A stretch of DNA of 64,000 bases, from positions 1 to 64,000 of IMG/VR virus record IMGVR_UViG_3300014913_000007, one strand, 5' to 3'. This document shows positions 9,500 to 64,000 of this stretch, piece after piece (the first letter of the stretch is position 1; every line of letters starts with the position of its first letter). Source of the stretch: a virus. The notes under the pieces were generated by a model. The model did no database searches. It was given only the letters and a program-made list of their open reading frames with translations, and had not been told where the DNA came from. The position numbers were made by a program, and so were the translations under genes.

Positions 9500-9772
9500 T
9501 TACATGAACCTCATAATGAACCAATTAATATTATGTCCTCTCAGTGGTAAATAACCAGGTCTTGATGCATTAAGATACCACATTGCTCCATCACATACAT
9601 GGCTAATATAAATTTCGTCCACTATGTAAGAAAGGCCATAGTAAGAAAAGAGTAAGCATTCCTTGCCTTCGAGTTCTTTCCAAAAATCTGCGGGGAGAGT
9701 ATCAACAAGATCTCCTAATTGATAAGTAGCCTTCTTTTGATAATACTTAAACGTTTCCGTAGTTATCTTCAT
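9500..9772 (-). CDS. small paralogue family member, leaderless
   Basis: LEGKECLLF...NWFI; ATG 7 nt after GCCGATAC. Confidence 0.75.
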   Translation of the reverse strand: MKITTETFKYYQKKATYQLGDLVDTLPADFWKELEGKECLLFSYYGLSYIVDEIYISHVCDGAMWYLNASRPGYLPLRGHNINWFIMRFM

Positions 9773-9779
9773 AGTAGCA

Positions 9780-9806
9780 GTATCGGCAGTTTGCCAGGAA
9801 ACTTTA
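9780..9806 (-). promoter_or_regulatory. sigma28-type promoter
   Basis: TAAAGTTT-N11-GCCGATAC. Confidence 0.8.
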
Positions 9807-9855
9807 GGGGTAATTATTTGCTCCGCAAATAATTCTACCTTAATATTAGTACAAT
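9803..9855. repeat. hairpin-containing repeat, copy 2
   Basis: AATTATTTGCTCCGCAAATAATT. Confidence 0.85.
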
Positions 9856-9859
9856 CGGG

Positions 9860-10186
9860 TCAAATAACCTCAACAAATATCCATTTCTTACCGTAGTGGT
9901 GTTCCTTTAAGCACATATCATGCTTTCCTGTTCCATATACTCCTGTCCAGTATTCCAGGCCGTGGCCAGCGAAGACTATTGGGTCCGTCTTCCACACTGT
10001 AACTATAGCAAGCACTACTATCTGGTCCTCAGGGGCGGGATCTTCCCAAGCTCCGTACCCTAAGTCATTAACAAGTAAGTACTTCTTATGTAACTTAATA
10101 TCCTCCAGACGTACCCTACTATCATTGAGGCTACGGATGAATCTCTTTATTGAATCGTTCTTTTGATATTCCTTACAATATGGCAT
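9860..10186 (-). CDS. small paralogue family member, leaderless
   Basis: HKKYLLV...HYGKKWIF; promoter TAAAGTTA-N12-GCCGATAC at 10194-10221, ATG 7 nt later. Confidence 0.75.
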   Translation of the reverse strand: MPYCKEYQKNDSIKRFIRSLNDSRVRLEDIKLHKKYLLVNDLGYGAWEDPAPEDQIVVLAIVTVWKTDPIVFAGHGLEYWTGVYGTGKHDMCLKEHHYGKKWIFVEVI

Positions 10187-10234
10187 ATATACAGTATCGG
10201 CATCGGGCGGGAATAACTTTAGTTATTTCTTTTT

Positions 10235-10258
10235 TTGGTATGCTTTTTGCTAGATCTA
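10235..10258 (+). promoter_or_regulatory. sigma54 -24/-12 box with TAGATC tail
   Basis: TTGGTATGCTTTTTGCTAGATCTA. Confidence 0.7.
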
Positions 10259-10941: not shown

Positions 10942-11193
10942 TTATAAGTAATTGAGCACGTACCAAGTCTCTAGATAGTTATCTGTTTTGAACTCGGAAA
11001 AGGTAGCCTTATCAGTATTTAAGACTCTTACACGAGTGCAGGTAGCTCCTGGCGACCAGCTTCGTAACTCCAGGTTACAGATCCTCACTATTCTCTCACC
11101 TGAGTCATGCTTGGTGAACAGTGTATACTTCTTACCACGACTTAGGCTTTTTAGGTTCAATGCCTTAGATGCATATGCGCTGAAATTTCCCAT
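10942..11193 (-). CDS. small paralogue family member, leaderless (true start 11193)
   Basis: LSRGKKYTLF...NYLETWYV; promoter at 11201-11227 ends 7 nt before this ATG. Confidence 0.75.
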   Translation of the reverse strand: MGNFSAYASKALNLKSLSRGKKYTLFTKHDSGERIVRICNLELRSWSPGATCTRVRVLNTDKATFSEFKTDNYLETWYVLNYL

Positions 11194-11200
11194 ACTATTA

Positions 11201-11227
11201 GTATCGGCACAATTCACATAAACTTTA
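11201..11227 (-). promoter_or_regulatory. sigma28-type promoter
   Basis: TAAAGTTT-N11-GCCGATAC. Confidence 0.8.
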
Positions 11228-12131: not shown

Positions 12132-12160
12132 TTGACAAGTAAACCTCCTTAATATAGAAT
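12132..12160 (+). promoter_or_regulatory. sigma70-type promoter (leaderless gene)
   Basis: TTGACA-N17-TAGAAT, ATG 6 nt downstream. Confidence 0.75.
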
Positions 12161-12166
12161 ACAGGT

Positions 12167-12520
12167 ATGAGGGAGGATGTATTAAGAAGACAATTAAGAG
12201 ACAGTACAGGTCCAATAGATATCTGGGTAGAGAATGAATTCTTTGAAGCTAACAAACATAGACAAGTACCTGTAGATGTAATACTAGCTAAACTAGAGTC
12301 ATATGACACTAATAAAGGCTATGAGAAGAAAATAAGAATAATGCAAGTAATCTCTAATATAGACTTGAGTACAAGTAAGAAAATAAATGCTAGATACTGT
12401 TCAATACTGGTATGTAACCTGCAGAATCTGGATGATAGAAAATTACTAACCTCTATTATACTCAATATGAATCATCCTTGGTTTGATACTAGAGATACTT
12501 ACTTTATGTATGTTGTTTAA
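12167..12520 (+). CDS. hypothetical protein, leaderless; related to 13372..13656
   Basis: FFEA.K...(V/I)P...TYF.Y shared. Confidence 0.7.
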   Translation: MREDVLRRQLRDSTGPIDIWVENEFFEANKHRQVPVDVILAKLESYDTNKGYEKKIRIMQVISNIDLSTSKKINARYCSILVCNLQNLDDRKLLTSIILNMNHPWFDTRDTYFMYVV

Positions 12521-12922: not shown

Positions 12923-12951
12923 TTGACAAGTAAACATAATAAATGTACCAT
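12923..12951 (+). promoter_or_regulatory. sigma70-type promoter (leaderless gene)
   Basis: TTGACA-N17-TACCAT, ATG at 12958. Confidence 0.7.
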
Positions 12952-12957
12952 AGTGAT

Positions 12958-13305
12958 ATGGAATTACACAAAGGAACAACAAGGTATTGCATACTAACAA
13001 GCAAATACGCTATTAAGATACCTAGCTTGTATAGTTGGGAACTATTTCTTACAGGACTACTGTGTAATATGCAGGAAGTACAGTGGAATACCTTAGATCC
13101 ATTACTATGCCCTGTATTGTTTAAACTTCCCTTAGGCTTTCTTCTAGTTATGCCAAAAGTTAGGATACTAGAAGAAAGACTATCAAACTCTGAGTTTAGT
13201 GTACTTATTAGTAGAAAAGATATATTACTTCCGATAGAAAATAAAAGAAACAGTTTCGGATACCTATCAACTGGGGAACTAGTCGCAATAGACTATGGTA
13301 CCTGA
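12958..13305 (+). CDS. minimal protein-kinase-like protein
   Basis: G-T-T-R, YAIKIP, conserved E, N-x-FG, IDYG motifs in kinase order. Confidence 0.55.
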   Translation: MELHKGTTRYCILTSKYAIKIPSLYSWELFLTGLLCNMQEVQWNTLDPLLCPVLFKLPLGFLLVMPKVRILEERLSNSEFSVLISRKDILLPIENKRNSFGYLSTGELVAIDYGT

Positions 13306-13322
13306 GAAAGCTTATATTGACA

Positions 13323-13350
13323 AGTAAAGTAAAGTAAAGTAAAGTAAAGT
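13323..13350 (+). repeat. (AGTAA)5 microsatellite inside promoter spacer
   Basis: between TTGACA (13317-13322) and TAATAT (13360-13365). Confidence 0.9.
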
Positions 13351-13371
13351 TAAGTAAGATAATATACTGAT

Positions 13372-13745: not shown

Positions 13746-13772
13746 TAAAGTTATTTAAAAATATGCCGATAT
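13746..13772 (+). promoter_or_regulatory. sigma28-type promoter
   Basis: TAAAGTTA-N11-GCCGATAT. Confidence 0.8.
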
Positions 13773-13779
13773 ACTAGAT

Positions 13780-14007
13780 ATGACAAATTGGGATGACGAA
13801 AAGGAGTGTTTAAAAGCTGTTAAAGAAAATGGATGGGCTTTACAGTATGTAAAAAATCAAACTCCAGAAATCTGCTTGGCTGCTGTTAAAGAGGATGCAG
13901 ATGCTTTACGATATGTAAAAACAGTGAATTGTTCCTACGAATTAAAAAATTATGTTTTAAATAACTTAAGGGAGGACCTAATCAAAACTTACCCTTCACA
14001 AATTTGA
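13780..14007 (+). CDS. DUF4116-like repeat protein, leaderless
   Basis: AVKENGWALQYVKNQTPEICLAAVK repeat. Confidence 0.8.
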   Translation: MTNWDDEKECLKAVKENGWALQYVKNQTPEICLAAVKEDADALRYVKTVNCSYELKNYVLNNLREDLIKTYPSQI

Positions 14008-14632: not shown

Positions 14633-14899
14633 TTAGATTGCATAGGTTAAGAACCAACCATTGTAGTAGTCCTTAGTATTCACATAAGCTCTAGATCCTC
14701 CTAAAGTCCCGTAATATATACCTGTTATACTTACGTGATCAAGTTTGACTTGATCCATGAAGAAAACCTCTTTGCCTCTGTTGAAGTCAGTATAGAATCT
14801 GCATAACTTAGTACCTAGTGGGATAGCATCTAACTTGCCTAAATCTAACGACATATAGTAATAAGTATAGTAAGTTGATTCGTCGATATTAATGCTCAT
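14633..14899 (-). CDS. small paralogue family member, leaderless
   Basis: DYYNGWFL; promoter TAAAGTTT-N11-GCCGATAT at 14907-14933. Confidence 0.75.
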   Translation of the reverse strand: MSINIDESTYYTYYYMSLDLGKLDAIPLGTKLCRFYTDFNRGKEVFFMDQVKLDHVSITGIYYGTLGGSRAYVNTKDYYNGWFLTYAI

Positions 14900-15027
14900 A
14901 CTAGGTATATCGGCAGGACCCCAAAAAACTTTAGGAATTTATTATATGTACCATAATTAAATTGACATGTAAACATAATAGAGGTACCACAGTGATATGA
15001 GAAGAACAAGGCGAGAGTGAGATTAAA

Positions 15028-16519: not shown

Positions 16520-16642
16520 CCTCTTCTCCTTAAGTTAATTTATCTACTTACAATAAAGTACAAATTAGTAAGTATATCAAGATATTATGTTTTTTTACTA
16601 AATAAGCTAAAGTCTTTTTGAAATCTTGTCGATAGTATATTT

Positions 16643-16897
16643 ATGAAGATTAGTAGTAAAGTATTTATAGCCCATAAATCTCGTGCTATACCCACAGAGG
16701 AGTTAACTAACTTATCTAAAACTCTAGAAGTTTTACTATATATCAACATAAATAATCAATATGGAATGGAAATAGTTACTGTAGGTACCTCTAAGTATAA
16801 ACATTACGTAAAAATGTGGTGCGCTAGTAGCGGGTTGTTTTTTGAACAGGGCTTATTCTCCTGTCCAGAGTCTTGGTATTGTAGGTATAAGGTGTAA
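16643..16897 (+). CDS. small paralogue family member, leaderless
   Basis: promoter TAAAGTCT-N12-GTCGATAG at 16608-16635, ATG 7 nt later. Confidence 0.7.
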   Translation: MKISSKVFIAHKSRAIPTEELTNLSKTLEVLLYININNQYGMEIVTVGTSKYKHYVKMWCASSGLFFEQGLFSCPESWYCRYKV

Positions 16898-17220: not shown

Positions 17221-17832
17221 CTAAAGTTTGTCTACGTCGTTATACCAATGCTCTTTTTGAATATAGGTTAAAGCCTCTCGCAGGTCTTTGAAACGTTTAC
17301 CTTCCCGTCTACCGTTTGTTACTATACAACATGGTGAATCAACACTAGGCTCATCTAAGTATAGCTTGTACGAAGCAAACTCACTACATGTATGTTCAAA
17401 AATATCAAGAATTACTCTGTCACCTAAATTATTAGTTTTAAACTTCTTAAGATGCGGAACTACTAACTTTAAACTTCTATATACTTTCTCTGTATACTTA
17501 GTATCTCCCCTAGTTAGTGCTATTTGTATACAGCTTTGTCCAGTTTCTGGAAAGTAGCCTGAAGATATTAAGTATAACTGTCTTAATTGTTTCTCTTTTT
17601 CATTATACATTGCCTTAGTTTCAGGATCACCGCATAGTATTAAATCTAAGTCTACTTCTCCAGAATCTATTCTATTGCTAAGAATTATTTCATCTCTTTT
17701 TTCTCTTAGAGTTCTTAGTTTAGTATTTTTTGCAGTTGCTGCTTTCTGTAGTGGAGTGAGTTTACTATAGATGTCATCTATCTCTGTCTCTAGATTTTCT
17801 ATTTTTTCTAATATATTATCTAATTTCTTCAT
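17221..17832 (-). CDS. hypothetical coiled-coil protein, leaderless (true start 17832)
   Basis: promoter TTAAGTTT-N11-GTCGATAA at 17840-17866. Confidence 0.75.
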   Translation of the reverse strand: MKKLDNILEKIENLETEIDDIYSKLTPLQKAATAKNTKLRTLREKRDEIILSNRIDSGEVDLDLILCGDPETKAMYNEKEKQLRQLYLISSGYFPETGQSCIQIALTRGDTKYTEKVYRSLKLVVPHLKKFKTNNLGDRVILDIFEHTCSEFASYKLYLDEPSVDSPCCIVTNGRREGKRFKDLREALTYIQKEHWYNDVDKL

Positions 17833-17873
17833 ATAAGTATTATCGACCAAATTTCAAAAAACTTAAACCTTAT

Positions 17874-18898: not shown

Positions 18899-19210
18899 AC
18901 TTAAATTAAATAGCATAAAAAGGACAGTCAGTGTTTCTACTAACTGCCCAAACAACCCCATGAAGTCTACTTCAGTTAATGCCTCAACAACATCTATCAA
19001 ATTTTTGAACTAAATTTATTTTGTATGCATTACTCTTTGTCATTTATTAAGCTCTACAGTAGTATATCAGATTACATAAAGTTGTCAATAGCTTTTCCTA
19101 AGTTTTAATTAAAATACTTACAAACATTTTTATATGTCTATAATTACTTAAATAACTATAGTTCCAGTATCTGTTGACATCTTTATAATTCTCAAGTACA
19201 CTAATTCAAT

Positions 19211-19393
19211 ATGGAGTCAATACTGGTACATTTTATGTTTTATTTCATCTTAATCTTCTTCTGTGGTACAGGTGCCTATATCATAGCTAATATGGGAGAT
19301 GAACTACCCTCAGAAAGGTTTTATTTATTTGATGTATTAGGTATTATAGCTGCAATTCTCCTAATACTGCTATTCTTAATCTTCATCTACTAA
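19211..19393 (+). CDS. small membrane protein, probably leaderless
   Basis: two TM segments; TTGACA-N17-TACACT at 19174-19202. Confidence 0.65.
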   Translation: MESILVHFMFYFILIFFCGTGAYIIANMGDELPSERFYLFDVLGIIAAILLILLFLIFIY

Positions 19394-20701: not shown

Positions 20702-23242
20702 CTATATTTTTGAATGCTTAGAATACTTCTTTTCATAGAACTCTTTTCTGCCCTCTGACCAATCTCTAAGCTTATTATTGGGATTTGAATCATCGGTATA
20801 GTCTATTACTACTGCGTACTTCTTTTCAACTGTGAATCTTAGTACTCTACCCACTGTTTGCTCAATACGGGTAGTATTCCCTCCACTGAAAGGTCCAGCC
20901 AGTATTAATGCACTTAAGCTGGGACAATCAAAGCCAGTATCAAACAAAGTATATGTACCACCAATTCCAGCTAGCTCCCCACTTTCAACTTTAAATACGT
21001 CTTCATTTAGTTGTTTATGGTTTACTTTAGTTTGTATAGCTCCCTTGTCTGTAGTTTTAATAGTGTAGGGATAAGATATGTGGATACCACGTTCTAACAA
21101 TTTTTCATATATTATTTTAGCGTGAAGAACCCTAGCGGTACATATGATAGGTTTAAAACCCATACTAATTAACCTTACACAGTCATCTACGATTAAGTTA
21201 TTTCTGACCTCATTGTTACATACCTCGTCTTGCAACTTGTGCATTTTCTTTCTTTTTCGCCACTCTTCCATACTATCTGTAACATCATAGAAAAAAGTAT
21301 TTCCAGTTTCTCTGGTATAAGTTTCTGGTGTTAGTCTTCCAGGAATTTGATTCTCATGTATAGTTACTACAATTTCCCCTAGTAAGGCTGTCATTAGATT
21401 ACTAAGTTCATCACTGGAGTAATGTTCAGGTGTGGCAGACAGTCCATATAATCTTTCAGGAGCCAACTTTAACAGTACAGTTCTATATGTCAATGCAGTA
21501 CTTAAATGACATTCATCAAAAAATATCGTATGAAAAGTATCCTTTAGTGAATCTAAGTCAAATCCTTCCTTGCCTAGTGTCATAAGTGATCCACATGTAA
21601 TAGGTTTAATGATCTTTTTCTTTGCTTTTATTATACCTATTTCTTCATCTGGTATTCCTAATACTTTAGTTACTGTCCTTCTAAATTGAGTTAACAGTCT
21701 ATCCTTCTGTGCTAAAAATAATACTGGACCTTTACCAAGTAACGCCATTGCTATACAAGAAATTACAGTTTTACCACTATTGTGATGTACTGTAAAGTCT
21801 TCTGTTAAATATAGATGATCTTTGTTTAACATGAAACCATAATAGGATCCTTCACCTACTGATTCTACTTTGAATCCAGTCCTTAGCACAGACTTCTTTT
21901 GTTTTCTAGGTACTGCTTGTTTTCTTTTAATTCTTGTAGGTATAATTGAAACTTCACCAGAAATAGAAAGTCTATAGTACTCAACTTGATTTACTATTTT
22001 GATATTTTTATATGCAGCTAAGCCTAAGGATCTTGCTATGAAAGTTATATCGTCTGCCAATCTTTCTGATTTTGACACATATTCAAAGTTTCCATTACCG
22101 AAGTACCCATCAGTATCTATTAATCCAGCTAGGATTTTCAATCTCTCACTATTAGATGCTTTCTTATAAATCTCTGGTATAAACCTGGTGCCACTTTTTG
22201 TTCCCCAAAGATTTAAGTTTTTTAATCTATCTATTAATAGGTTATGTCCTGGGATCCCTGTTTTTATACCTTTTAAACTAGACTTAAAGAAGTAAGTTTT
22301 AGCTTTACCAGTATTAGCATCCTGAATGCTATTTTGGATCAAACAATGCTGTCTGCATAGATCATTAAACATCTTTACTATCTCTTCATCAGCTGTAGTT
22401 ATACTACCTTGACGACAAATTCCTCCATCTCCAAGTAATACACCTAAATGGTAAGGATCTATAGGTAAGGAAGTTGGTAGTTCTTTAAAATTTATTGCTG
22501 CCCTTTTTAGTTTATAATGATGTTTAAAACTATTTGATTTGTCCAAGTAATCATTTACAGAGATATTAATAGTTGTACCTTTAAGTTTTATGTATTTACA
22601 CATATCAACGCCTTTTAGTATTTTCGGCTGTGGGTCTTCTCTTCTGATGCCAGATTGCTCAAGATGAAGTACATGAGATTTATTTACTACAAATGGAGTG
22701 CCTTTTGTTGGTGTAATCTTATACATCTCTTCTTCACCTGAAAATAATTTAAGTACTTCTCTAGGTTTACTATCAGGACCCATTAAAAGGTCTCCAATCT
22801 GTATTTTTTCTACTTTTTTTAGTGTACCATTATACATTAGTATCTCAGTGCCAGGTGCATGGCATCCTGGAGGAGCTTGTATTCTAGCAGTATTATATTG
22901 TAAAAGTTTATTTACCGCATCTCCTTGAAATCCGAATACACCACTTGTATAATTAATTTTTTCAGAAATACTTGATGGAACATTCTCACCAGAGCTTGTA
23001 CTAAAGGTTTTAGTTACGGGTAAGTTATTCTGTGAACACACTCTAATAAGCTCTAACTCTTTTCCACGAGGAATGTAGATAGAATTACCTTCTTTTTTAA
23101 ATAAGTGTAATTTTTCTGGTATTCCTTTATCTTTATTTGCATAAGGTGTTATGTCATAGGTACAGACTGACTTGAAATACTCTTCTAGGTTTGGAGGTAA
23201 TCCTGTGATTCTTAAGCAATTAGATAAATCATAAGAGATCAC
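20702..23242 (-). CDS. superfamily 2 (UvsW/XPB-like) helicase with intein
   Basis: APPG|SGKT split Walker A, DECH, SAT, QTVGRVLR. Confidence 0.9.
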   Translation of the reverse strand: MISYDLSNCLRITGLPPNLEEYFKSVCTYDITPYANKDKGIPEKLHLFKKEGNSIYIPRGKELELIRVCSQNNLPVTKTFSTSSGENVPSSISEKINYTSGVFGFQGDAVNKLLQYNTARIQAPPGCHAPGTEILMYNGTLKKVEKIQIGDLLMGPDSKPREVLKLFSGEEEMYKITPTKGTPFVVNKSHVLHLEQSGIRREDPQPKILKGVDMCKYIKLKGTTINISVNDYLDKSNSFKHHYKLKRAAINFKELPTSLPIDPYHLGVLLGDGGICRQGSITTADEEIVKMFNDLCRQHCLIQNSIQDANTGKAKTYFFKSSLKGIKTGIPGHNLLIDRLKNLNLWGTKSGTRFIPEIYKKASNSERLKILAGLIDTDGYFGNGNFEYVSKSERLADDITFIARSLGLAAYKNIKIVNQVEYYRLSISGEVSIIPTRIKRKQAVPRKQKKSVLRTGFKVESVGEGSYYGFMLNKDHLYLTEDFTVHHNSGKTVISCIAMALLGKGPVLFLAQKDRLLTQFRRTVTKVLGIPDEEIGIIKAKKKIIKPITCGSLMTLGKEGFDLDSLKDTFHTIFFDECHLSTALTYRTVLLKLAPERLYGLSATPEHYSSDELSNLMTALLGEIVVTIHENQIPGRLTPETYTRETGNTFFYDVTDSMEEWRKRKKMHKLQDEVCNNEVRNNLIVDDCVRLISMGFKPIICTARVLHAKIIYEKLLERGIHISYPYTIKTTDKGAIQTKVNHKQLNEDVFKVESGELAGIGGTYTLFDTGFDCPSLSALILAGPFSGGNTTRIEQTVGRVLRFTVEKKYAVVIDYTDDSNPNNKLRDWSEGRKEFYEKKYSKHSKI
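21779..22864 (-). mobile_element. intein with LAGLIDADG homing endonuclease (362 aa)
   Basis: N-term CHAPGT, C-term VHHN|S, motifs LGVLLGDGG and LAGLIDTDG. Confidence 0.92.
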
Positions 23243-27979: not shown

Positions 27980-28204
27980 TTAAAAACGCTCTAGCATTAT
28001 TTTATACCTTTTGGTCCCGAATAATCTTTTGAATCGAATGCGAATTATAAAATGTTTTGGATACTGTGTCAGTTCGACATAGAGTGGACCTAACGACCAA
28101 TACATTTCAGTTTCTGAGATACCAAACCTGGACGAGAAAGACATATGACCTATCTCAGGGTAGTCGTTGTTACCACAATTATCTTCACTTAATATTATAC
28201 TCAT
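27980..28204 (-). CDS. hypothetical protein, leaderless
   Basis: extended -10 TGTTATACT 7 nt before ATG. Confidence 0.6.
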   Translation of the reverse strand: MSIILSEDNCGNNDYPEIGHMSFSSRFGISETEMYWSLGPLYVELTQYPKHFIIRIRFKRLFGTKRYKIMLERF

Positions 28205-28326
28205 ATGAACTAGTATAACACATTAAGGTAGAATAGTGCAATCTCAAAATTACTCTTTTGACTGAGACATGCAGAAATGTTATAATATATTTAAGTGAAC
28301 TTTAGTAATAAAATAGTGATATCGAA

Positions 28327-30088: not shown

Positions 30089-30165
30089 ATATCGTCATAT
30101 TTTCAGAAAACTTTAGTAGAAAAATAATTAAATACTTCTAAAGTTTTTTAATAACCAGCCGATAA
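30089..30165. promoter_or_regulatory. divergent pair of sigma28-type promoters
   Basis: minus 30089-30115; plus TAAAGTTT-N11-GCCGATAA at 30139-30165, an exact FliA consensus. Confidence 0.85.
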
Positions 30166-30172
30166 TACTCTT

Positions 30173-40917: not shown

Positions 40918-40936
40918 ATAAATAAATAAATAAACT

Positions 40937-42908: not shown

Positions 42909-43047
42909 AAGTATAAAACCTAATAAATACATATAACTAAGTATAAACAAAATAAATAAATTAATTACATTATTTACCTAAAGTTTTCCAAGATTCTGTC
43001 GATAATACTATTAAGCGAAACAAACAACTTTAAGGAGTTTAATAGTA

Positions 43048-43836: not shown

Positions 43837-43863
43837 TTTACTATTTTAGGAAGATATCTTAAA

Positions 43864-45450: not shown

Positions 45451-45468
45451 CTTATAATTTAGTATACT
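45440..45468 (+). promoter_or_regulatory. sigma70-type promoter
   Basis: TTGACA-N17-TATACT. Confidence 0.75.
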
Positions 45469-45501
45469 ATTGAATAATAACTTATTACTCAGGAGTATAC
45501 T

Positions 45502-47248: not shown

Positions 47249-47390
47249 TTACTTGCTATTTCCTTAAAATATTGATATACTTATAATAGGTTATGATTTA
47301 ACTAATTTATTTTAAATTAGATGATGCGGATTGGACTATTTTAAATAGGAGACAAGCAATATAGAAGACAGGAGTTAATTATAAATTAAC

Positions 47391-48488
47391 GTGATCAAAA
47401 CAGATACTATAACTAAAACACCTAAAAAGTCAAAAAAATCAACTACTAAAACAAAAAGCAAAACAAAACCAACTAAAAAAGTAACTAAATCTACTAAGAA
47501 AACTGATTATAAATTTGTAAATTACTTTCAATCAGAACCTCAACTAGACGAAATAACACATAAATCTGACCCAGAAGATATCCTTAATGCTTATGAAAGA
47601 ATTATATGGGTTACAGCTAAAAAACACTACAAAATGGGAAGAACATCTACCGAACTAGAGGATTTAATCGCTCAAGGTCAATTAGGTGTGTGTGAAGCTA
47701 TAAAAAGATACAAAAACCCAAACACTAGACCAAGATATAAATTTCACATGCTATGTTTATATAATATACGTGATTATATCTTTAAGTATTGTATCCGTAA
47801 TGTAAATCAATTAAAAACTCCTGTTTACATTCAAAGAGAACTAATGCATGTAGCTCAAATATTTCAATTAATGAATAACCAAACAGTGGCAGAAGCTATC
47901 TTAAAGAGAGAAGGTCCGTCTACTGAAAGTGAAATAATAGCATTCATCTATGATGAAGATGAAAGATTGCCTTTAAAATCAAAAACTTTTATAAAGAAGC
48001 AGATTAATAAAAAAGTAAATAAAAAAGAATTCGAACAAATATATAATGGAATTATAAGTCATGAATTAGGAAGTAGACACTCCTATGTAAAAAATAATTT
48101 AAGTGATGTTGGGAAAATACTACATATTAAAGAAAAAATTTGGTACACTTTTAAAAGTAATAATATGAAATATGAAAGAGGAATTAAACTTATCCTCTCT
48201 GCTAAACAATCTCAAGACTCATTAGATGCTGCAATACACTCACCCATACCAAAGGAAGTAATAGAACAAAACGTAGCACAAAAACAATTAATAGATCATG
48301 GATCTAAGATATGTGGTAAATTAAACTTTAGAATACTATTTGAAAATAAGTGCATGGATATGAACTATGCAGAAATATCTAAAACACACAATATTAAAAA
48401 AAACATGGTAACGGATATAATCAAAAAATCTATAAAATTATTGCAAAAAGATCCAGTGTTCCAAGAAATGTTTAAGGAGCTATTTTAA
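47391..48488 (+). CDS. sigma70-family RNA polymerase sigma factor
   Basis: region 2 (EDLIAQGQLGVCEAIKRY...KF...IR) and region 4 HTH (YAEISK....V..I....IK.L). Confidence 0.8.
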   Translation: MIKTDTITKTPKKSKKSTTKTKSKTKPTKKVTKSTKKTDYKFVNYFQSEPQLDEITHKSDPEDILNAYERIIWVTAKKHYKMGRTSTELEDLIAQGQLGVCEAIKRYKNPNTRPRYKFHMLCLYNIRDYIFKYCIRNVNQLKTPVYIQRELMHVAQIFQLMNNQTVAEAILKREGPSTESEIIAFIYDEDERLPLKSKTFIKKQINKKVNKKEFEQIYNGIISHELGSRHSYVKNNLSDVGKILHIKEKIWYTFKSNNMKYERGIKLILSAKQSQDSLDAAIHSPIPKEVIEQNVAQKQLIDHGSKICGKLNFRILFENKCMDMNYAEISKTHNIKKNMVTDIIKKSIKLLQKDPVFQEMFKELF

Positions 48489-49507
48489 TGACAGTGACTA
48501 TATTAGAGGTTGGAGATCCAGCTATTCCTGTAGTAAATGCGGATTACCTAGATCCAGTAACCGACACTGAAATGACCTTCCCAACTCAAGGTATAGTTGG
48601 TACAGTATTAAAAAGTGAAACTTATGGTAATTATGTAGAAAGTGATGAACCTATCTATCAATATCTATTAACTTTTGACCCTCCCGTCGAGACGACAGCA
48701 GATGTAGTCACAGCCGACGATGATGGAATAGAAACTTCTAACCAGCAGCTATTTACAGCATCTGAAATATGGTTTTCAGATGTGGACTTAGGATTATCGG
48801 ATGAAGTAGACCCTTTCGAATTGGATAGTCAGGCTATTCAAAATACAATAGATGAAGGTAAACAGAGGTCCACAGCTAATTTATCTACAGTTCAAAGTAT
48901 AAGTGCATCTGTAGGGCAGGAGGATGTAGTAAATACTTCTGATTATGGAGGGCCAGATATATTGGCCTCTTCAGATACATTAACTGCCTTAGTTGGAACA
49001 TTAGATAATATTGAGGATGTAAATGGGAAAACAAGTGATGAAATAGACAACCAAGCTTACAAATATGAGAAAGAAGCTAGCAGTGTTGCAGACAACTCCG
49101 ATATCTTTGCTGAGTATGTAGATAATTTATACTCACAGAGGCAAGTGGAGCAAGAAAAGGAGGATGAGAGACATCGATATTCTGAGCAAGGTGCAGAACA
49201 GCAACAACAAGCAGACGTAGAAGATGCTCAAAACTCGAAGGAATATTATGATGCACACATAGACTTAGGACATTTGGAAAATCCTTTCACACTAACTGAA
49301 AATTTTGATGAGTATAACCTATCAGAGGAGGCTGAAGAGACTCTACTAGATTCCATTGAGGAAGTAGTTAATAATCTAAATAGTAGCTTATTAGGACCCG
49401 ATGATCCAGCTCCTACACTTTTTACAATAGAAAGAACTACTAGCACTGTACAACCAGAACCAGAATCAACTAGTTACCCTACATCTCCAGAAGAAGCAGA
49501 AGAATAG
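48488..49507 (+). CDS. very acidic hypothetical protein
   Basis: 339-aa ORF coupled to sigma gene. Confidence 0.75.
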   Translation: MTVTILEVGDPAIPVVNADYLDPVTDTEMTFPTQGIVGTVLKSETYGNYVESDEPIYQYLLTFDPPVETTADVVTADDDGIETSNQQLFTASEIWFSDVDLGLSDEVDPFELDSQAIQNTIDEGKQRSTANLSTVQSISASVGQEDVVNTSDYGGPDILASSDTLTALVGTLDNIEDVNGKTSDEIDNQAYKYEKEASSVADNSDIFAEYVDNLYSQRQVEQEKEDERHRYSEQGAEQQQQADVEDAQNSKEYYDAHIDLGHLENPFTLTENFDEYNLSEEAEETLLDSIEEVVNNLNSSLLGPDDPAPTLFTIERTTSTVQPEPESTSYPTSPEEAEE

Positions 49508-49564
49508 TCATTCTATTTTGTAAAAAAAATTAAAGTTATACATAATAAATGTCGATACTAACGT

Positions 49565-50536
49565 ATGGACATAATAAAGAACATACAAGTACCGACTGGA
49601 AACATACTTATAGTATCTGGAGATAAAGGAAACTTAGAATTCCTATCTATTGGGGATTACGGAAAAGAAGCCAATTTGAAGTGTGACGCTTTGGGACTAA
49701 CTAGGGAAATAGGTAAGGTCCAACACGTTGAAATGTTACCACTATCTGAAAAGTGGGTAATAACTGTGTCAACTCAATATGGTTGCTCGATGAACTGTAC
49801 ATTTTGTGATGTACCTAAGGTTGGTCCTGGTATAAATGTGACTCTCGATGATCTTATCCAACAAATATCACTAGGTTTAGGGCTACATCCTGAAGTGAAA
49901 AGTGGGAAAAGATTGAACGTTCACTATGCCAGGATGGGGGAACCTACCTTTAATCCTGAAGTTCTAAGATCAGCCTATGCATTACAACTATTACTAAAGG
50001 ATTTTGATACTGTTCACCCAGTTGTATCCACTATGATGCCCAAAAATAATAAATTCTTAAAGAAATTTCTAAATGAGTGGATGTATATAAAGAATGAAAT
50101 TTTTCAGGGGGAGGCTGGCCTACAGTTGAGTTTAAATAGTACCTGTGAGCAAGAAAGAAAACTAATGTTCTCTGGTAATTCTTTAAGTCTATCAGATATT
50201 TCAGATGTAGTTTCAGCTTATAGACCTAAAGGTAGAAAGATTACACTAAATTTTGCTGTTGCAGACTACACTATAGATCCGAGTGTACTATTGAAATATT
50301 TTGATCCTAAATACTTTATAATAAAACTTACACCTATGCATAAAACTCATACTGCCTTAAAGAACAGTATAAAAACTAATGGAGATTACACAACTTTTTA
50401 TCCATATAAACAACACGAAAAAACACTTAAGTCTGTTGGATATGATGTATTAGTATTTATAGCATCTGTAGAAGAGGACCTAGGTAGAATAACTTGTGGT
50501 AATGCTATACTATCAGGATCTACTCCAGATTACTAA
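49565..50536 (+). CDS. RlmN/Cfr-like radical SAM RNA methyltransferase, leaderless
   Basis: STQYGCSMNCTFC, MGEP, LSLNS, C-terminal CG; promoter at 49531-49558. Confidence 0.8.
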   Translation: MDIIKNIQVPTGNILIVSGDKGNLEFLSIGDYGKEANLKCDALGLTREIGKVQHVEMLPLSEKWVITVSTQYGCSMNCTFCDVPKVGPGINVTLDDLIQQISLGLGLHPEVKSGKRLNVHYARMGEPTFNPEVLRSAYALQLLLKDFDTVHPVVSTMMPKNNKFLKKFLNEWMYIKNEIFQGEAGLQLSLNSTCEQERKLMFSGNSLSLSDISDVVSAYRPKGRKITLNFAVADYTIDPSVLLKYFDPKYFIIKLTPMHKTHTALKNSIKTNGDYTTFYPYKQHEKTLKSVGYDVLVFIASVEEDLGRITCGNAILSGSTPDY

Positions 50537-53041: not shown

Positions 53042-53258
53042 TCAAAATTATCTATTGTTGCATTATTATATCTATTATCCATACATATACCATAGTACAG
53101 ACTGTGGGACATAATAAAAAAATGTAGTCGCAAAAGTGAAAAAGTCCTAGTATTTTTATGTAAAATGAATAACTATAATAGGTTATAATATACCTACTAA
53201 ATTAACTTATTACATAAATATACCTAAAGTTATTTAAAAATATGCCGATATACTAGAT

Positions 53259-53684
53259 ATGACAAATTGGGATGACGAAAAGGAGTGTTTAAAAGCTGTT
53301 AAACGGGATGGATTTGCTTTAAAGTATGTAGAGAATCAAACTCCAGAAATCTGCCTAGAAGCTGTTAAACAATGTGGACAAAGCTTAGAATATGTAAAAA
53401 GCCAAACTCCAGAAATCGGCCTAATTGCTGTTAAAGAAAATGGATGGGCCTTAGAATATGTAAAAAACCAAACTCCAGAAATCTGCCTAGAAGCTGTTAA
53501 ACAATGTGGACAAAGCTTAGAATATGTAAAAAGCCAAACTCCAGAAATCTGCTTGGCTGCTGTTAAAGAAAATGAATGGGCTTTACAGCATGTAAATAAG
53601 AAATTTTATACTTCAGATTTAAAAGCATTTATTTTAACTAGTTATGATAAAAAAGTTACTTTAAACTATTTTGAGTTTATATAA
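53259..53684 (+). CDS. DUF4116-like repeat protein, leaderless
   Basis: QTPEICL.AVK repeats; promoter 53225-53251 identical to 13746-13772. Confidence 0.85.
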   Translation: MTNWDDEKECLKAVKRDGFALKYVENQTPEICLEAVKQCGQSLEYVKSQTPEIGLIAVKENGWALEYVKNQTPEICLEAVKQCGQSLEYVKSQTPEICLAAVKENEWALQHVNKKFYTSDLKAFILTSYDKKVTLNYFEFI

Positions 53685-60587: not shown

Positions 60588-62393
60588 TTGAAAGTAAGAA
60601 AAACCTACATTAGAAACTTATCCAAAACAATTAAAATAATTGAAACTGAGACTAAAAAAGAAGTATCCACTGACTTAACTACACTAGAAACAGATATTTC
60701 AGAAATAACTTATAAATCTTGGGTACTAGAAACTTACATCGTAGGTATCAATGAGGTCTTTGATCTAGTGTTAACTTATTCAAAGAATGAGGAGGAAGCT
60801 ACAGCTCTAAAAAACGACTTGTTTAGAGAAACTATAAAGATAAATCCCTACCTAGATCCAAATGACTTGTATATAGATGTAAATCAAATTACACTAACTA
60901 AAACTCCAAATCAACTAGTAGAGTCTAAACATTGGAAAACAAATGAAGATACCTCTAATATACCTATTATATCTGACTTCCACAAATACTTTGAAATGTC
61001 TAAACAAGTTAGAGGACACGACCATTCAGTAGAAACTGCGTTCAGTGAAGTTCTTAACATGGGTATAAAAATAAGAATATTTAACAAAAAAATTAGGGAC
61101 TCACTTGTATTTGGATTTGACCCTAAATCAGAGCAAGCTGTTAAATATCATACTATTGTAACGTGTGTAGATAGCCTACATGATCTTCTTACACTAATAA
61201 AAAGTGATCCTAATAAGAAACAAATACCCTTCTCACATATTTTGGAAGATCTGTTTAACTGGTCTATATTGCATAATCCTTTTCTTGATTTAAAGATCAA
61301 AGATATTAAGAAGATAAACAAAACTACTAAAGAGTTTGTCCAAGCAGTAGGTAAGGAAGATACTAAAGAAGTTACCAAAAAAGGCAGAACACATATAAGC
61401 CAAGTACCTAGAGAGGAGATACTAGCTTTAGAGGAAACACTATTAAGTCAGATATTCGGGCAAGATACTGCAGTAAAAGCCGTATCTGATGCCTATAAGA
61501 GAGCCTTTAGTGGAGTTAAGAATCCTACTTCTCCAATAGGGTGCTTCCTGCTCTATGGAGGAACTAGTACTGGTAAAACTGAGTTAGCTAGAGTGTTAGG
61601 TAAACTGCTAACGAAGAGCCATAGAGGGCTTATAAAGATACCTTGTAATACCCTCCAGGCTGCCCACAGTGTGGCTACGTTGATCGGTGCCCCTCCAGGG
61701 TATGTAGGCTACGAAGATGGCTGTCTGGCCGAAAATATGAAGGATAGCAGCTTCAAGGTGGTACTCTTCGATGAGCTAGATAAGGCTCACCCTAATATAT
61801 ACGATCTAGTACTTGAGATGATAGAAGAAGGTAAACTTTTAATCTCTAATGGTGAGGTACTAGATTTTACTCAATGTCTAATACTATTTACCAGTAACAT
61901 GGGTCAGCAGGCAGCTCAAAAGGGTACTTCTAAGAGTGGATTCTCCTCTAACATAGGAAATAAAGATAAGCTAAAAGCAGATGAGTACTTAAGGATTATA
62001 GAGAGAGACATAAAGCCTGAGTTCCTGGCTAGGTTAAACGGAAAATTCTACTTTCCAGATTTAAGTGATGAAACTCTAGAAAAAACAGGGAGAAGATACT
62101 TAGAAATAAGAACTGAACACCTTAAACAGAATAAAATTCACTTTTCATACCCTGATGCCTTACCTGAGGTAGTTCTAGAACGCTGTAGTACAGCGAACCC
62201 AAAGGGATTTCATGCTAGAGAGTTAAACAATTATATAGAATCTGAAATAATACAGAAGTTAGGTAACTATATGATTAGATCGGAGCTTACAGGGAAACGT
62301 AATGTATCCATAGGGTTATCTGTAACACCTACTGGTTACACTTTTAGGAAGAAAGCTAAGAAAGTAGAGAAAAGAACTAAAAAGAAAGATTGA
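60588..62393 (+). CDS. ClpA/ClpB-like AAA+ ATPase (only the D2 module)
   Basis: IFGQD.AV, GGTSTGKTE, LIGAPPGYVGY, LFDELDKAHP, TSN, PEFLARL. Confidence 0.85.
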   Translation: MKVRKTYIRNLSKTIKIIETETKKEVSTDLTTLETDISEITYKSWVLETYIVGINEVFDLVLTYSKNEEEATALKNDLFRETIKINPYLDPNDLYIDVNQITLTKTPNQLVESKHWKTNEDTSNIPIISDFHKYFEMSKQVRGHDHSVETAFSEVLNMGIKIRIFNKKIRDSLVFGFDPKSEQAVKYHTIVTCVDSLHDLLTLIKSDPNKKQIPFSHILEDLFNWSILHNPFLDLKIKDIKKINKTTKEFVQAVGKEDTKEVTKKGRTHISQVPREEILALEETLLSQIFGQDTAVKAVSDAYKRAFSGVKNPTSPIGCFLLYGGTSTGKTELARVLGKLLTKSHRGLIKIPCNTLQAAHSVATLIGAPPGYVGYEDGCLAENMKDSSFKVVLFDELDKAHPNIYDLVLEMIEEGKLLISNGEVLDFTQCLILFTSNMGQQAAQKGTSKSGFSSNIGNKDKLKADEYLRIIERDIKPEFLARLNGKFYFPDLSDETLEKTGRRYLEIRTEHLKQNKIHFSYPDALPEVVLERCSTANPKGFHARELNNYIESEIIQKLGNYMIRSELTGKRNVSIGLSVTPTGYTFRKKAKKVEKRTKKKD

Positions 62394-62446
62394 AAATAAC
62401 CTCAACCTGTGGTATAATATACTTATAATTAATGTAGGAGTCAATT

Positions 62447-63211
62447 ATGCCATATATACTACCAGAAGATAGAAAAAAATTCGATAAGACTATTCTAAAG
62501 TTAGCTAAGAAGTTACGAAAATTCAAAGGCAAGGAGAAGTACACTAGAACTTCCAGTGTAATCTTAGACACGTTCTTGCAGTTTTACAATTACCAGTTTC
62601 GCTATGCAGACATAAATGAAATTATGGGTGTACTTACATGCGCTCTAGAAGAGTGGATGCGAAGGAAGGACGGGGTTGAAGGTTATACAGATAATTCAAC
62701 TGTGTTCGGAGAGGCTTTAATACCTTACGGAGGTGAATACGACTTAATTGAAGAACTTTCTGATTTGCTGAAATGTAACACATCACTATCAGGAACAGCT
62801 GGAAATTTCAACTACTGTATAACAAAGCTTCTTACTGAAGTGTTTTCACCTCTTGACAAATTAACTGCAGTAGATCGTGAGGAAGTACCTAGTATACTAG
62901 CTACAGTACGTGGATTTTTCTATGACAATTATGCAATACCCTACGAAGATACTAAGGTAGATATGAATGGAGATGTATTTTATTCCAAGGAAAAAAGGTC
63001 AGTAAAAAAGAAAATTCAAAAAGAATTTAAACAGCAAGTAGAAGAGAATCTAGGTAAACAGATAGAATTATGCGGTGAGGCTTTTAGAGACGTAGATCTG
63101 GACGAAATTGATGAGCCTGATCCCACCTGGAAAGATATAGCCATTATTTTAGGCTCTACTATTTTCTTAGCTGGATTAGTAACTATGTCAATTCTTAACG
63201 CAGTATTTTAA
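62447..63211 (+). CDS. conserved phage protein (MPYI...PYED.K...NGDV family)
   Basis: internally duplicated motif, C-terminal TM. Confidence 0.7.
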   Translation: MPYILPEDRKKFDKTILKLAKKLRKFKGKEKYTRTSSVILDTFLQFYNYQFRYADINEIMGVLTCALEEWMRRKDGVEGYTDNSTVFGEALIPYGGEYDLIEELSDLLKCNTSLSGTAGNFNYCITKLLTEVFSPLDKLTAVDREEVPSILATVRGFFYDNYAIPYEDTKVDMNGDVFYSKEKRSVKKKIQKEFKQQVEENLGKQIELCGEAFRDVDLDEIDEPDPTWKDIAIILGSTIFLAGLVTMSILNAVF

Positions 63212-63224
63212 TTACCGAAGTATA

Positions 63225-63515
63225 ATGAATAAAAAGCAAATAGAAAAACACATTAAATTCGCTCAACGGTATGGTGGAAATCCTATAACTGCATCTGGAA
63301 TATTACCTAAGAACGGCAGATTTTATGGATTAGATCCTGCATATGAACTACCTGAGCCTACTACAAAAACACATAAAGAACAACAACTGGAAAACATAGA
63401 GGGAACCTTTCAAGAAGTTGAAAATTTTGAGAGTAAACTACGTAGAGATGCTACTAAAAAGGCAAATAAAACTATTTTAGATTCAATTGTAGGTAGTATA
63501 ACAACTAGTGAATAA
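63225..63515 (+). CDS. hypothetical phage protein
   Basis: ORF track. Confidence 0.65.
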   Translation: MNKKQIEKHIKFAQRYGGNPITASGILPKNGRFYGLDPAYELPEPTTKTHKEQQLENIEGTFQEVENFESKLRRDATKKANKTILDSIVGSITTSE

Positions 63516-63825
63516 AGTAAAACAATTAGAAGAAATAGAAAACACATTTAAGGAGATAGATGCAGTACTAGATCCTAATAAGTCTTTAGTATCTAACAGT
63601 GACTTTCTCACTATGCAGCAACTAAACGCAACTATATCAAATTATGACTCTGGTATTAGTCTAGATACTAATAATGTAATTACTAACAGAATGGAACCGG
63701 AGGAATTTGTGCTCCCAAATGTTAGGCCAGCCTGCCCAATAACTGGTCAAATGTATGTTGATCCAGGTCTTGATGAGTTGTGGATCTATATGTACTCTGA
63801 ATGGAAAAAGGTCAATCTTAGTTGA
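63508..63825 (+). CDS. hypothetical phage protein
   Basis: shares QLE.IE.TF.E with previous ORF. Confidence 0.65.
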   Translation: MNKVKQLEEIENTFKEIDAVLDPNKSLVSNSDFLTMQQLNATISNYDSGISLDTNNVITNRMEPEEFVLPNVRPACPITGQMYVDPGLDELWIYMYSEWKKVNLS

Positions 63826-63856
63826 CATTCAATGTAATATAGGTTAAAATACAATT

Positions 63857-64000
63857 ATGGGAAAAAATAAAATACCACTAGATAAACAAATTGATACATG
63901 CAATAGAAGAATTCAAGGACATTTAAATAATCCTAATTCTAATCCAGAAAGATTATTTAGATTGCTTGAAAGACTCGCTAAATTAGAAAATCTCGTACCT
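63857..64000 (+). CDS. partial leaderless ORF running off window end
   Basis: TTGACA-N17-TAAAAT at 63822-63850, ATG 6 nt later, open to end. Confidence 0.6.
   Translation, partial: MGKNKIPLDKQIDTCNRRIQGHLNNPNSNPERLFRLLERLAKLENLVP

Follow-up and report, generated by a model that had tools for sequence, protein, structure and literature searches.

Start codons at predicted transcription start sites and a phage-encoded ribosomal protein S2 in a large uncultivated phage

Introduction

The virus record IMGVR_UViG_3300014913_000007 holds 153 kb of a phage with 33% GC, and its first 64 kb (64,000 nucleotides, hereafter the window) are best explained as the early/middle region of an uncultivated phage genome of roughly 200 kb, for which there are hints of a Gram-negative bacterial host. 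The window raises the question of whether two of its features belong together: a set of genes whose ATG stands at the predicted transcription start site (TSS), and a gene for ribosomal protein S2. The original prediction coupled them, proposing that the phage S2 excludes S1 from the ribosome and thereby favours leaderless messages. The biology on which it drew was cited correctly: S1 docks on S2 (PMC4288201), and E. coli ribosomes deficient in uS2 are without bS1 and bS21 and translate the leaderless lambda cI mRNA better (PMC10491246). The phage brings a toolkit of 23 tRNAs, a CCA-adding enzyme, RtcB and an RNA ligase, with RtcB, RNA ligase, RlaP and the CCA-adding enzyme clustered at 35.9-46.7 kb. 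Genes for S1, S21 and IF3 were searched for in the phage and none were found, and 118 of the 199 genes keep Shine-Dalgarno (SD) sites.

Promoters fused to start codons

About 38 promoters in total fit the FliA/sigma28 consensus (TAAAGTTT-N11-GCCGATAA), and their -35 element TAAAGTTT, 11-nt spacer and -10 element GCCGATA(A) equal the FliA/SigD consensus of E. coli (PMC2859248). The setting differs from the plain FliA/SigD one, since none of the phage copies precedes a flagellar gene, 14 of them directly abut a start codon, and the phage also carries a divergent sigma factor of its own. The arrangement TAAAGTTT-N11-GCCGATA-N7-T-ATG occurs 12 times (0.02 expected by shuffling); in the window, TAAAG-N15-18-CGATA-N7-8-ATG was observed 12 times against 0.02 expected and CGATA-N7-TATG 11 times against 0.23, and none of 100 shuffles reached the observed count of either CGATA-ATG pattern. 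Genome-wide, an ATG stands at exactly +8 from 14 of the 142 CGATA cores (other offsets, 0-3); 13 of these 14 ATGs begin ORFs of 50 aa or more, and T occupies position -1 in all 14. All copies of the motif are intergenic and lie either within 1-54 kb or at 153 kb; the 14th copy with the ATG at this distance (153210) is outside the window.

All 13 sigma28-type coordinates of the original prediction were borne out: each ATG lies 7-8 nt past the CGATA core, with (C)TAAAGTT upstream at FliA-consensus spacing. Six of the units are on the minus strand: 9500-9806 (promoter 9770-9806, ATG 9772, 90-aa ORF, with a weak codon score of 5.9 that is still that of the best frame), 9860-10221 (ATG 10186, 108 aa), 10942-11227 (ATG 11193, an 83-aa reading), 14633-14933 (ATG 14899, 88 aa), 17221-17866 (-35 element TTTAAGTT, ATG 17832, 203 aa) and 37336-38075 (ATG 38040, a REC-HPt response regulator). 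On the plus strand are 13746-14007 (ATG 13780, a DUF4116 repeat protein), 16608-16897 (ATG 16643, 84 aa), 30139-30562 (ATG 30173, 129 aa), 33093-33426 (ATG 33127, 99 aa), 38403-39771 (CGATA-N7-ATG 38437, a CCA-adding enzyme with PolyA_pol head, RNA-binding and HD domains), 49531-50536 (CGATA-N7-ATG 49565, a radical-SAM-like protein with an in-frame stop 6 nt upstream) and 53225-53684 (ATG 53259, a DUF4116 protein with four repeats). The DUF4116 gene at 13780 has paralogues at 53259 and 153210 with a near-identical promoter. Apart from the three recognisable products (response regulator, CCA-adding enzyme and radical SAM protein), the leaderless products are for the most part small ORFans or DUF4116 proteins.

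The start codons themselves are well constrained. For 11 of the 13 cases in the window, the frame upstream of the ATG meets a stop after 6-90 nt, inside the promoter, without an ATG, GTG or TTG in between; the exceptions are 17832, with a TTG 18 nt upstream, and 11193, which lies within a longer ORF and whose start is ambiguous because the frame is open upstream to 11502. Frame 0 has the top codon score among the six frames in all 13, and none of the 10 ATGs that are in the gene call is preceded by GGAG, GAGG or AGGA. The Pfam domains of two of the products start at residues 8 and 26, and the receiver domain that begins at residue 8 of the 38040 product fixes its start codon.

The sigma70-type set is smaller but real. 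The class pattern TTGACA-N17-TAnnnT-N6-ATG has 9 matches (2.5 expected), only four of which are gene starts. Seven cases had been proposed, of which four are good and three weak. Convincing are ATG 12167 (12132-12520, plus strand; TTGACA-N17-TAGAAT-N6, 117-aa ORF), ATG 37317 (37135-37352, minus strand; TTGATC-N17-TATACT-N6, 60-aa ORF) and ATG 63857 (63822-64000, plus strand; TTGACA-N17-TAAAAT-N6, with a 56-aa ORF ending at 64027, beyond the window); ATG 12958 (12923-13305, plus strand; TTGACA-N17-TACCAT-N6) is fairly so, its start being less certain because another in-frame ATG lies 15 nt upstream. The weak cases are ATG 19211 (19175-19393, plus strand; TTGACA-N17-TACACT-N8, a 60-aa hydrophobic ORF) and ATG 28204 (27980-28240, minus strand; TATACT-N7), both with codon scores of about zero, and ATG 38116 (38116-38397, plus strand; TATACT-N6), without a -35 element and with three in-frame ATGs upstream. 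By one strict rule the leaderless starts number 16 for the window and 19 for the record as a whole, so that the predicted figure of about 20 leaderless genes is a fair one.

Since the ATGs stand at the expected TSS, leaderless mRNAs are the natural reading, and the genes fused to either promoter class are most likely made as such, to judge from TSS positions predicted from the promoter motifs. In both classes the ATG would be placed at the pyrimidine-purine step, at a distance of 9 nt from CGATA or of 7 nt from the -10 hexamer, so that 14 sigma28-type and about 4-7 sigma70-type units genome-wide would give mRNAs with a 5' UTR of 0-2 nt, translated through direct binding of the 70S ribosome and initiator tRNA to the 5'-terminal AUG. 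At the sigma28 promoter of E. coli aer, transcription starts 6 bp past the -10 octamer (PMC2859248); with that spacing the TSS would fall 1-2 nt upstream of the ATG's first base, and a 5' UTR of 1-2 nt is therefore as likely as none. About 24 further sigma28-like promoters have leaders of 20-35 nt with strong SD sites, the AGAGGTAATT-ATG type being common, in keeping with what had been predicted for most other promoter-proximal genes. In many of these leadered promoters a T-purine step, judged by eye and untallied, lies some 8-9 nt past CGATA, its position being variable.

The phage S2 protein

The product of 42024-42908 (plus strand, 294 aa) is a bona fide uS2, as had been predicted (Pfam 250 bits, TIGR01011 262 bits). 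Its sigma70-type promoter (41944-41972, plus strand; TTGCTA-N17-TATTCT) is followed by a leader some 45 nt long in which AGGA precedes the ATG by 9 nt, and the S2 message is therefore leadered and SD-dependent. An N-terminal extension (residues 1-42, with a helix predicted at 17-36) precedes the canonical core (43-268), in which the rRNA-binding part is conserved at equivalog level, and a C-terminal helix extension (269-294), conserved and specific to the phage clade, follows. The AF2 model (pLDDT 92) matches solved S2 chains with Z 32-33 and rmsd 1.1-1.6 A. Six phage S2s, from syntenic phage contigs of independent samples, form a single phage-only clade (SH-aLRT 100); acquisition on one occasion and retention by one phage lineage as a functional uS2 explain this best. 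S2 matches in a cultured-phage collection lack the extension, and host DNA may be present in their records; uS2 is not named among phage ribosomal proteins in the main texts of surveys including PMC6375957 and PMC7162821.

Most residues of the S1-docking site are kept. The Zn pocket (His18, Asp188, Asp204, Asp205) together with His15 and Asn203 is invariant in the six phage S2s, and position 32, where an aromatic is essential, holds Tyr in five (as in 14 of 115 bacterial S2s) and Phe in one. Arg208 is the only docking residue lost, in all six, whereas 109 of 115 bacterial S2s have Arg or Lys there; mutation of its partner (D39K) has a minor effect (PMC4288201). The N-terminal extension is basic in two clade members and acidic in four, so that the extension is no conserved device. 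The extra helices are modelled beside helix alpha-1 (pLDDT 72-91), and the conserved C-terminal one adjoins the S1 site.

Every relative retains the gene for a divergent phage sigma factor, which lies here at 47391-48488 (plus strand) and whose product may read one of the promoter classes; the gene's own sigma70-type promoter (47253-47281) has a -35 element, TTGCTA, identical to that of the S2 promoter. This shared promoter flavour would fit a programme with S2 early and leaderless genes later. An acidic 339-aa protein (48488-49507, plus strand), translationally coupled to the sigma gene, served as the marker through which relatives were traced.

Distribution of S2 and leaderless starts

S2 is absent from all 29 unrelated phage records in which sigma28-type leaderless starts were found; 11 of these records have a completeness of 90% or more. 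The design also occurs in the relatives L006 and L097 and in 44 of 78 IMG/VR pattern matches, and orthologues switch form: the DUF932 gene has a leader in this phage (43048) and none in L006. S2-bearing relatives have 0-1 sigma28-type leaderless starts per 11-20 kb, and leaderless density among relatives does not track S2. Full-motif matches number 13 in this phage against 1-5 per S2-less phage (each chosen for having at least one such match), which leaves room for a quantitative link. No evidence here ties S2 to leaderless starts, and their coupling is unproven.

Discussion

Phage ribosomal proteins are known to enter ribosomes (PMC6375957), and the phage S2 most likely does so too. It would enter the host 30S as an exchangeable, late-assembling protein, as has been shown for phage bS21 and bL12, and there add to host S2 or take its place, as one element of a set that also has the tRNAs, CCA-adding enzyme, RtcB and RNA ligase. 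On the predicted coupling, such a replacement would weaken or block S1 docking through the loss of Arg208 and the new terminal helices, so that leaderless and strong-SD phage mRNAs would be preferred over S1-dependent host mRNAs. This fits the preference of uS2/bS1-deficient ribosomes for leaderless mRNA (PMC10491246), the S1-free, leaderless-selective ribosomes discussed in PMC4288201, the modelled position of the helices, the highest sigma28-leaderless count among the phages compared and a sigma70-type, probably early, S2 promoter. We nevertheless consider it improbable: the docking-essential residue is still aromatic and the Zn pocket intact, the D39K mutation opposite Arg208 has only a minor effect, the N-terminal charge is not maintained, S2-less phages have the identical design, and S2-bearing relatives have few leaderless starts. 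S1, moreover, binds AU-rich leaders, the kind found in the phage. The supporting biology, too, describes ribosomes that lack S2, and the phage supplies an additional one. The leaderless reading and the status of S2 as a phage-lineage variant are supported, and the causal step from S2 to leaderless translation is not. Least probable of all is that free phage S2 acts off the ribosome, as an S1 sponge or as a repressor of host rpsB-tsf, altering ribosome composition indirectly. S2 does autoregulate rpsB-tsf in E. coli, and the S1-contact residues are conserved. Pull-downs also show binding of isolated S2 to the N-terminal domain of S1 (PMC4288201), but conservation of the entire rRNA-binding core is what a ribosome-bound protein needs, and a search near the phage S2 gene found no rpsB-leader-like RNA.

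Two further readings leave S2 aside. The leaderless set might be SD-independent insurance against damage to the 16S 3' end or to initiation factors by host defences or by the phage, a counterpart to the phage's RNA-repair genes; we regard this as unlikely, if the foremost among the alternatives. Leaderless mRNAs are independent of anti-SD pairing (PMC10491246), the genes concerned include a phosphorelay protein and the tRNA-repair enzyme of the RNA-repair cluster, and orthologues such as DUF932 change between forms; but most leaderless products have no repair link, RtcB is itself leadered, and the idea is purely inferential. Alternatively, the motifs may be inactive as promoters, or the ATGs may not be at 5' ends, with upstream transcripts translated without SD sites by another route. 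Several units do lie just 3' of other same-strand genes, yet all 14 cases keep a spacing of exactly 7-8 nt and a T at -1, which is hard to explain if the 5' end does not matter, and the complete two-element consensus with FliA spacing and the intergenic confinement speak against it as well, so that we rate it as quite improbable, below the S1-exclusion proposal and above an off-ribosome S2.

Parallels exist for each feature separately. In the Thermus phage phiYS40, as here, a -10 element adjoining the ORF gives many leaderless mRNAs, thought to tune host translation (PMC3594737); however, most of its middle and late genes are leaderless, against about 10% of genes, in the early/middle region, in our phage, its host phylum Deinococcus-Thermus uses leaderless mRNA natively (PMC12340547), and its proposed lever is the IF2/IF3 ratio and not a ribosomal protein, whereas our phage lacks an IF3 gene. 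The lambda cI message from pRM, tested in E. coli rpsB mutants, is a leaderless phage mRNA sensitive to S2/S1 status (PMC10491246), but the effect follows from lack of uS2 (hence of bS1 and bS21) and involves a single gene, in a phage without an S2 of its own. Phage bS21, bL12, bS1 and S4 resemble the phage S2 as exchangeable solvent-side proteins captured by large phages, under purifying selection and sometimes with terminal extensions, and phage rpS1 has previously been linked with non-SD genes (PMC6375957; PMC7162821).

The explanation that we favour for the whole, with a confidence a little above even, is that FliA-type and sigma70-type promoters would produce leaderless starts and the phage S2 would act in the 30S, the features being uncoupled. 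In this view the phage's translation-support toolkit has the leaderless genes and S2 as two distinct components, not as one coupled system.

Sigma28-type promoters fused to start codons

At all 13 window positions for which a sigma28-type promoter abutting the ATG had originally been predicted (9772, 10186, 11193, 13780, 14899, 16643, 17832, 30173, 33127, 38040, 38437, 49565 and 53259), the arrangement (C)TAAAGTT, spacer, (G/T)(C/A/T)CGATA, 7-8 nt and ATG was found. The pattern CGATA-N7-TATG had 11 matches compared to 0.23 expected, and TAAAG-N15-18-CGATA-N7-8-ATG had 12 compared to 0.02 expected, with neither count reached in any of 100 shuffles. When no -35 element was demanded, 14 of the 142 CGATA cores of the whole record had an ATG at exactly +8, each preceded by T, and 13 of these opened an ORF of 50 aa or more; every other CGATA-to-ATG offset was represented by 0-3 cases. 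The presence of ATG-abutting promoters is confirmed, and for the sigma28 class it is statistically overwhelming.

The consensus of sigma28 (FliA) promoters consists of the -35 element TAAAGTTT, an n11 spacer and the -10 element GCCGATAA (PMC2859248). These elements at 11-nt spacing were recognized at 45 CGATA cores with at least six of eight -35 matches, about 38 of them convincing. In the E. coli aer promoter, which was mapped experimentally, transcription starts 6 bp past the -10 octamer (PMC2859248), a distance that would place the start at the A of the phage ATGs or 1-2 nt before it, and either way a Shine-Dalgarno (SD) sequence has no room. About 24 promoters of the sigma28-like family are leadered, and many of them show a T-purine step some 8-9 nt past CGATA (judged by eye, the position varying), so that both sub-classes indicate a start site within the same few-nucleotide zone.

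The start codons of all leaderless candidates (an ATG abutting a sigma28- or sigma70-type promoter at the predicted transcription start) are ATG, and none is preceded by an SD. For 11 of the 13 sigma28-type cases in the window, the frame holds no ATG, GTG or TTG between the start codon and a stop codon 6-90 nt upstream, within the promoter; frame 0 had the best codon score of the six frames in all 13. The receiver domain of the product starting at 38040 begins at residue 8, the nucleotidyltransferase head of that starting at 38437 at residue 26, and two of the window starts yield DUF4116 repeat proteins. Least certain are the starts at 9772 and 16643, where codon scores are low, and at 11193, where the ATG lies inside a longer ORF. 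Judged from the promoter geometry, these genes are probably expressed from leaderless mRNAs.

Three DUF4116 paralogues (13780-14007, 53259-53684 and one at record position 153210) have near-identical sigma28-type promoters and the same first 14 residues; the location of the third copy near the opposite terminus suggests that the record is circularly permuted or terminally redundant. A run of AAGTA pentamer repeats (about 13320-13360) lies immediately 5' of the gene at 13372. The second, leadered sub-class of sigma28-like promoters (window 1100-8200 on the minus strand, also at 12847, 18357, 24273, 25455, 30094 and 43000) is characterized by a near-fixed spacer, TAAAGTTTTCTGAGAATCTGACGATA, an AT-rich leader of 20-35 nt and a stereotyped ribosome site, AGAGGTAATT-ATG, and stands before a tandem array of small genes. 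Its conserved spacer hints at an additional regulator site.

Sigma70-type starts and the share of candidate leaderless genes

The sigma70-type starts predicted alongside held up only in part: 12167, 37317 and 63857 are good and 12958 is fairly good (19211, 28204 and 38116 are weak). The enrichment of this class is modest, its pattern having nine matches compared to 2.5 expected, and only four of the nine were gene starts. Further good cases lie beyond the window at 69254 (-), 76725, 79931 and 151348 (-), and near the tRNA arrays short ORFs follow sigma70-type -10 hexamers. The largest leaderless candidate, a 564-aa protein (record 149654-151348, minus strand) behind a near-perfect TTGACT-N16-TATAAT-N6-ATG, contains several HTH and Sigma70_r4-like motifs and DUF7487; a DUF7487 protein is also present in L003, the locus of a relative.

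One strict rule yielded 16 leaderless candidates for the window; the whole record, with about 199 genes, has 19. In a takeover of the phiYS40 type, most of a temporal class is leaderless and the initiation factors shift (IF2 up, IF3 down), whereas in the present phage leaderless candidates number about 19 of 199, an SD site (GGAG/GAGG/AGGA) precedes 118 of the 199, and no IF3 gene is present.

Phage record, sigma factor and gene content

The IMG/VR record comprises 153,389 bp with 33% GC and is about 78% complete (CheckV), the window corresponding to its bases 1-64000. Neither a megablast search of cultured phages with 8 kb of this DNA (no match) nor tblastn with the family-A DNA polymerase (no match above 25% identity) revealed a cultured relative, nor, by that route, a host. 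The window encodes a RuvB-like ATPase, an intein-bearing helicase, a D12 methylase, thymidylate synthase and a ClpB-like ATPase, and around the S2 gene an RNA-repair cluster (35946-46650) with RtcB, a CCA-adding enzyme, an RlaP nucleotidyltransferase and an Rnl-type RNA ligase; outside it are 23 tRNAs, the family-A DNA polymerase, DnaB, ribonucleotide reductase and PhoH. In the relatives, RtcB is retained and Gad2- or Tad5-like genes are added.

The phage has its own divergent sigma factor (47391-48488), the AF2 model of which is poor (pLDDT 59, pTM 0.34). Its Lys/Thr-rich N-terminal tail is highly variable in length across the phage's own locus (47391-49507) and the relatives' loci (L003, L006, L095, L096 and L097), and in the window and all five loci the sigma gene is followed by a translationally coupled, highly acidic partner of about 330 aa, for which only about 33 cluster representatives were found in 1.8 billion proteins (HMMER).

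A phosphorelay is also phage-encoded, with a soluble PAS-HisKA-HATPase-REC hybrid kinase (43864-45450, plus strand) and a REC-HPt protein (37336-38040, minus strand), and no output domain was seen; the nearest Atlas clusters of the kinase belong to Campylobacterota and Pseudomonadota. Inteins occur in this genome: a ResIII helicase (20702-23242, minus strand) has Hint and LAGLIDADG domains and a PIN-PhoH protein (record 138296-140755, minus strand) a LAGLIDADG insert. A 578-aa protein (record 70164-71900, minus strand) has seven DUF285 (BspA-like leucine-rich) repeats.

A phage-specific clade of uS2

The gene at 42024-42908 (plus strand), predicted to encode S2, indeed encodes a full-length uS2, matching PF00318 over profile positions 1-216 of 216 with 249.6 bits and TIGR01011 with 262.4 bits (cut-off 76.3). 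The AF2 model (pLDDT 92.3) displays the two-domain fold (alpha/beta globular plus coiled-coil) and superimposes on ribosome-bound S2 chains of E. coli, S. aureus and others with Z 32-33 and an rmsd of 1.1-1.6 A across 225-232 residues. The best solved relative is the P. aeruginosa protein. No rpsB-type leader precedes the gene, and an Rfam search found nothing in the window.

The terminal extensions of this protein are common to five metagenomic proteins (45-72% identity) and a sixth on the relative's locus L096. Independent samples yielded such extension-bearing S2s on contigs of phages, and the gene order is conserved: S2, DUF932 gene, RtcB, and then the sigma-like gene and its acidic partner. 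In a tree with 80 bacterial S2s, the six phage S2s grouped together in one clade apart from them (SH-aLRT 100), separated by a long branch; the closest bacterial S2s, with 42-47% identity, are those of Gamma- and Betaproteobacteria. Given the long branch, neither these S2s nor the Atlas clusters of the kinase point firmly to a host. IMG/VR scans with a single query, either S2 or the 339-aa acidic partner (48488-49507, plus strand), returned nothing, and a scan with the S2 alignment returned only four S2s lacking the extensions and falling outside the phage clade. Among the phage ribosomal proteins listed in the main texts of papers on the subject are bS21, bL12, bL9, bS1, S4, bL31 and bL33, as well as bS6, uS9, uS15, bL21, bL27, uL11 and uL1, but not uS2. 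The S2 of this phage is a real and novel uS2 of a phage lineage, which captured it once, long ago, and has kept it.

The C-terminal tail of S2 (EN...AE.FI...L) is conserved in all six clade members, and in the AF2 model it prolongs the last core helix without a bend (250-293); the charge of the N-terminal extension varies (basic in two members, acidic in four). Mimicry of the S1 N-terminal helix by the tail, both being acidic with Phe, is not claimed, since the tail simply continues the helix in the model; in a fold search the tail aligned with the S2-S1 chimera 4toi at an rmsd of 5.5 A (an uninformative alignment).

The fused promoter in other phages and its relation to S2

An IMG/VR scan with the fused sigma28-ATG motif returned 78 loci, and at 44 of them the ATG opens an ORF of 40 aa or more. 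Among these is a conserved membrane protein of 91-115 aa, present in many phages with 40-45% GC. The membrane protein (MIQWIGV...YPIQYCLMAYD; L103, L120, L128, L132, L149, L151, L160, L164 and L179) occurs in unrelated uncultivated phages of up to 167 kb, its ATG lying 8 nt past a consensus sigma28 -10 element.

S2 was absent from all 29 sigma28-leaderless phage records searched, 11 of which are at least 90% complete; they contain 1-5 full-motif matches each compared to 13 in the present phage, and a search with the 339-aa acidic protein as marker indicated that they are not its kin. In seven complete S2-less records with the same promoter type no sigma-70-family gene was detectable, and host FliA is therefore the likely reader there. 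Among the S2-bearing relatives, one leaderless candidate was found in 20 kb of L003, one in 11 kb of L006 and one in 11 kb of L096. The relative's locus L097, from a 254-kb contig in which S2 is absent from the syntenic stretch between the CCA and sigma genes, has two in 21 kb. In L006 the DUF932 gene has a leaderless start, in the present phage a leadered one. Both comparisons indicate that the leaderless design works without a phage S2 and that the presence of S2 does not predict its frequency; the samples are small, and the present phage is the richest case seen. The correlation between S2 and leaderless genes predicted across relatives was not borne out (n about 5, no trend).

The original prediction also suggested that the phage S2 may exclude S1 and bias ribosomes towards leaderless and strong-SD messages. 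In the S2-S1 crystal study, stacking of Phe32 on S1 Phe5 and Phe9 is essential, with minor salt bridges from Arg208 to S1 Asp39 and from S1 Lys43 to the Zn pocket (PMC4288201). We scored nine Zn-pocket or S1-contact residues (His15, Phe16, His18, Phe32, Asp188, Asn203, Asp204, Asp205 and Arg208), seven of which are kept in the S2 of the present phage. His15, His18, Asp188, Asn203, Asp204 and Asp205 are invariant across the phage clade; position 16 is Phe in the present phage and Phe or Tyr over the six members, and position 32 is occupied by Tyr in five members and by Phe in the sixth, Tyr being seen there in bacterial S2s as well (14 of 115). Arg208 is lost in all six phage S2s compared to Arg or Lys in 109 of the 115 bacterial sequences. 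With most of these residues kept, the S1-docking site appears largely intact, and the known leaderless effect in E. coli arises when S2 is lacking rather than when more of it is supplied (PMC10491246). Genes for S1, S21 and IF3 were looked for in the phage and none was found.

A phage-made specialised ribosome might be built as follows: uS2, acting through its conserved C-terminal helix and an N-terminal helix presumed to emerge beside the S1-docking groove, would remodel the S1/mRNA-exit platform of the host 30S so that leaderless and strong-SD phage messages beat S1-dependent host mRNAs, and the transcripts would be matched to this by the fusion of sigma28-type promoters to ATG. We regard this as improbable. 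Two features lend such coupling some weight: the loss of Arg208 together with the conserved C-terminal tail, and the TTGCTA-N17 promoter flavour common to the S2 and sigma genes, which would fit early synthesis of S2. The same leaderless design is found in phages without S2. As S2 is dispensable for that design, ribosome reprogramming by S2 should not be read from sequence alone; the coupled mechanism is a hypothesis that we consider unlikely, with evidence that is neutral to negative.

Implications for phage gene expression

Neither leaderless translation nor the presence of ribosomal protein genes in phages is new in itself. Apparently new is the phage-only uS2 clade with its own terminal helices, and because uS2 is the docking site of S1, the phage protein offers a natural handle for asking whether phages build specialised ribosomes. 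Apparently new, too, are the 14 instances in one phage of a start codon joined directly to a flagellar-type (sigma28) promoter, and the occurrence of the same promoter family in matched leadered and leaderless versions, ready for reporter work. The recurrence of the fused promoter in dozens of unrelated uncultivated phages suggests a general, overlooked design of phage gene expression, and its presence in phages without a sigma gene suggests that these depend on host FliA and hence on whether the host is motile.
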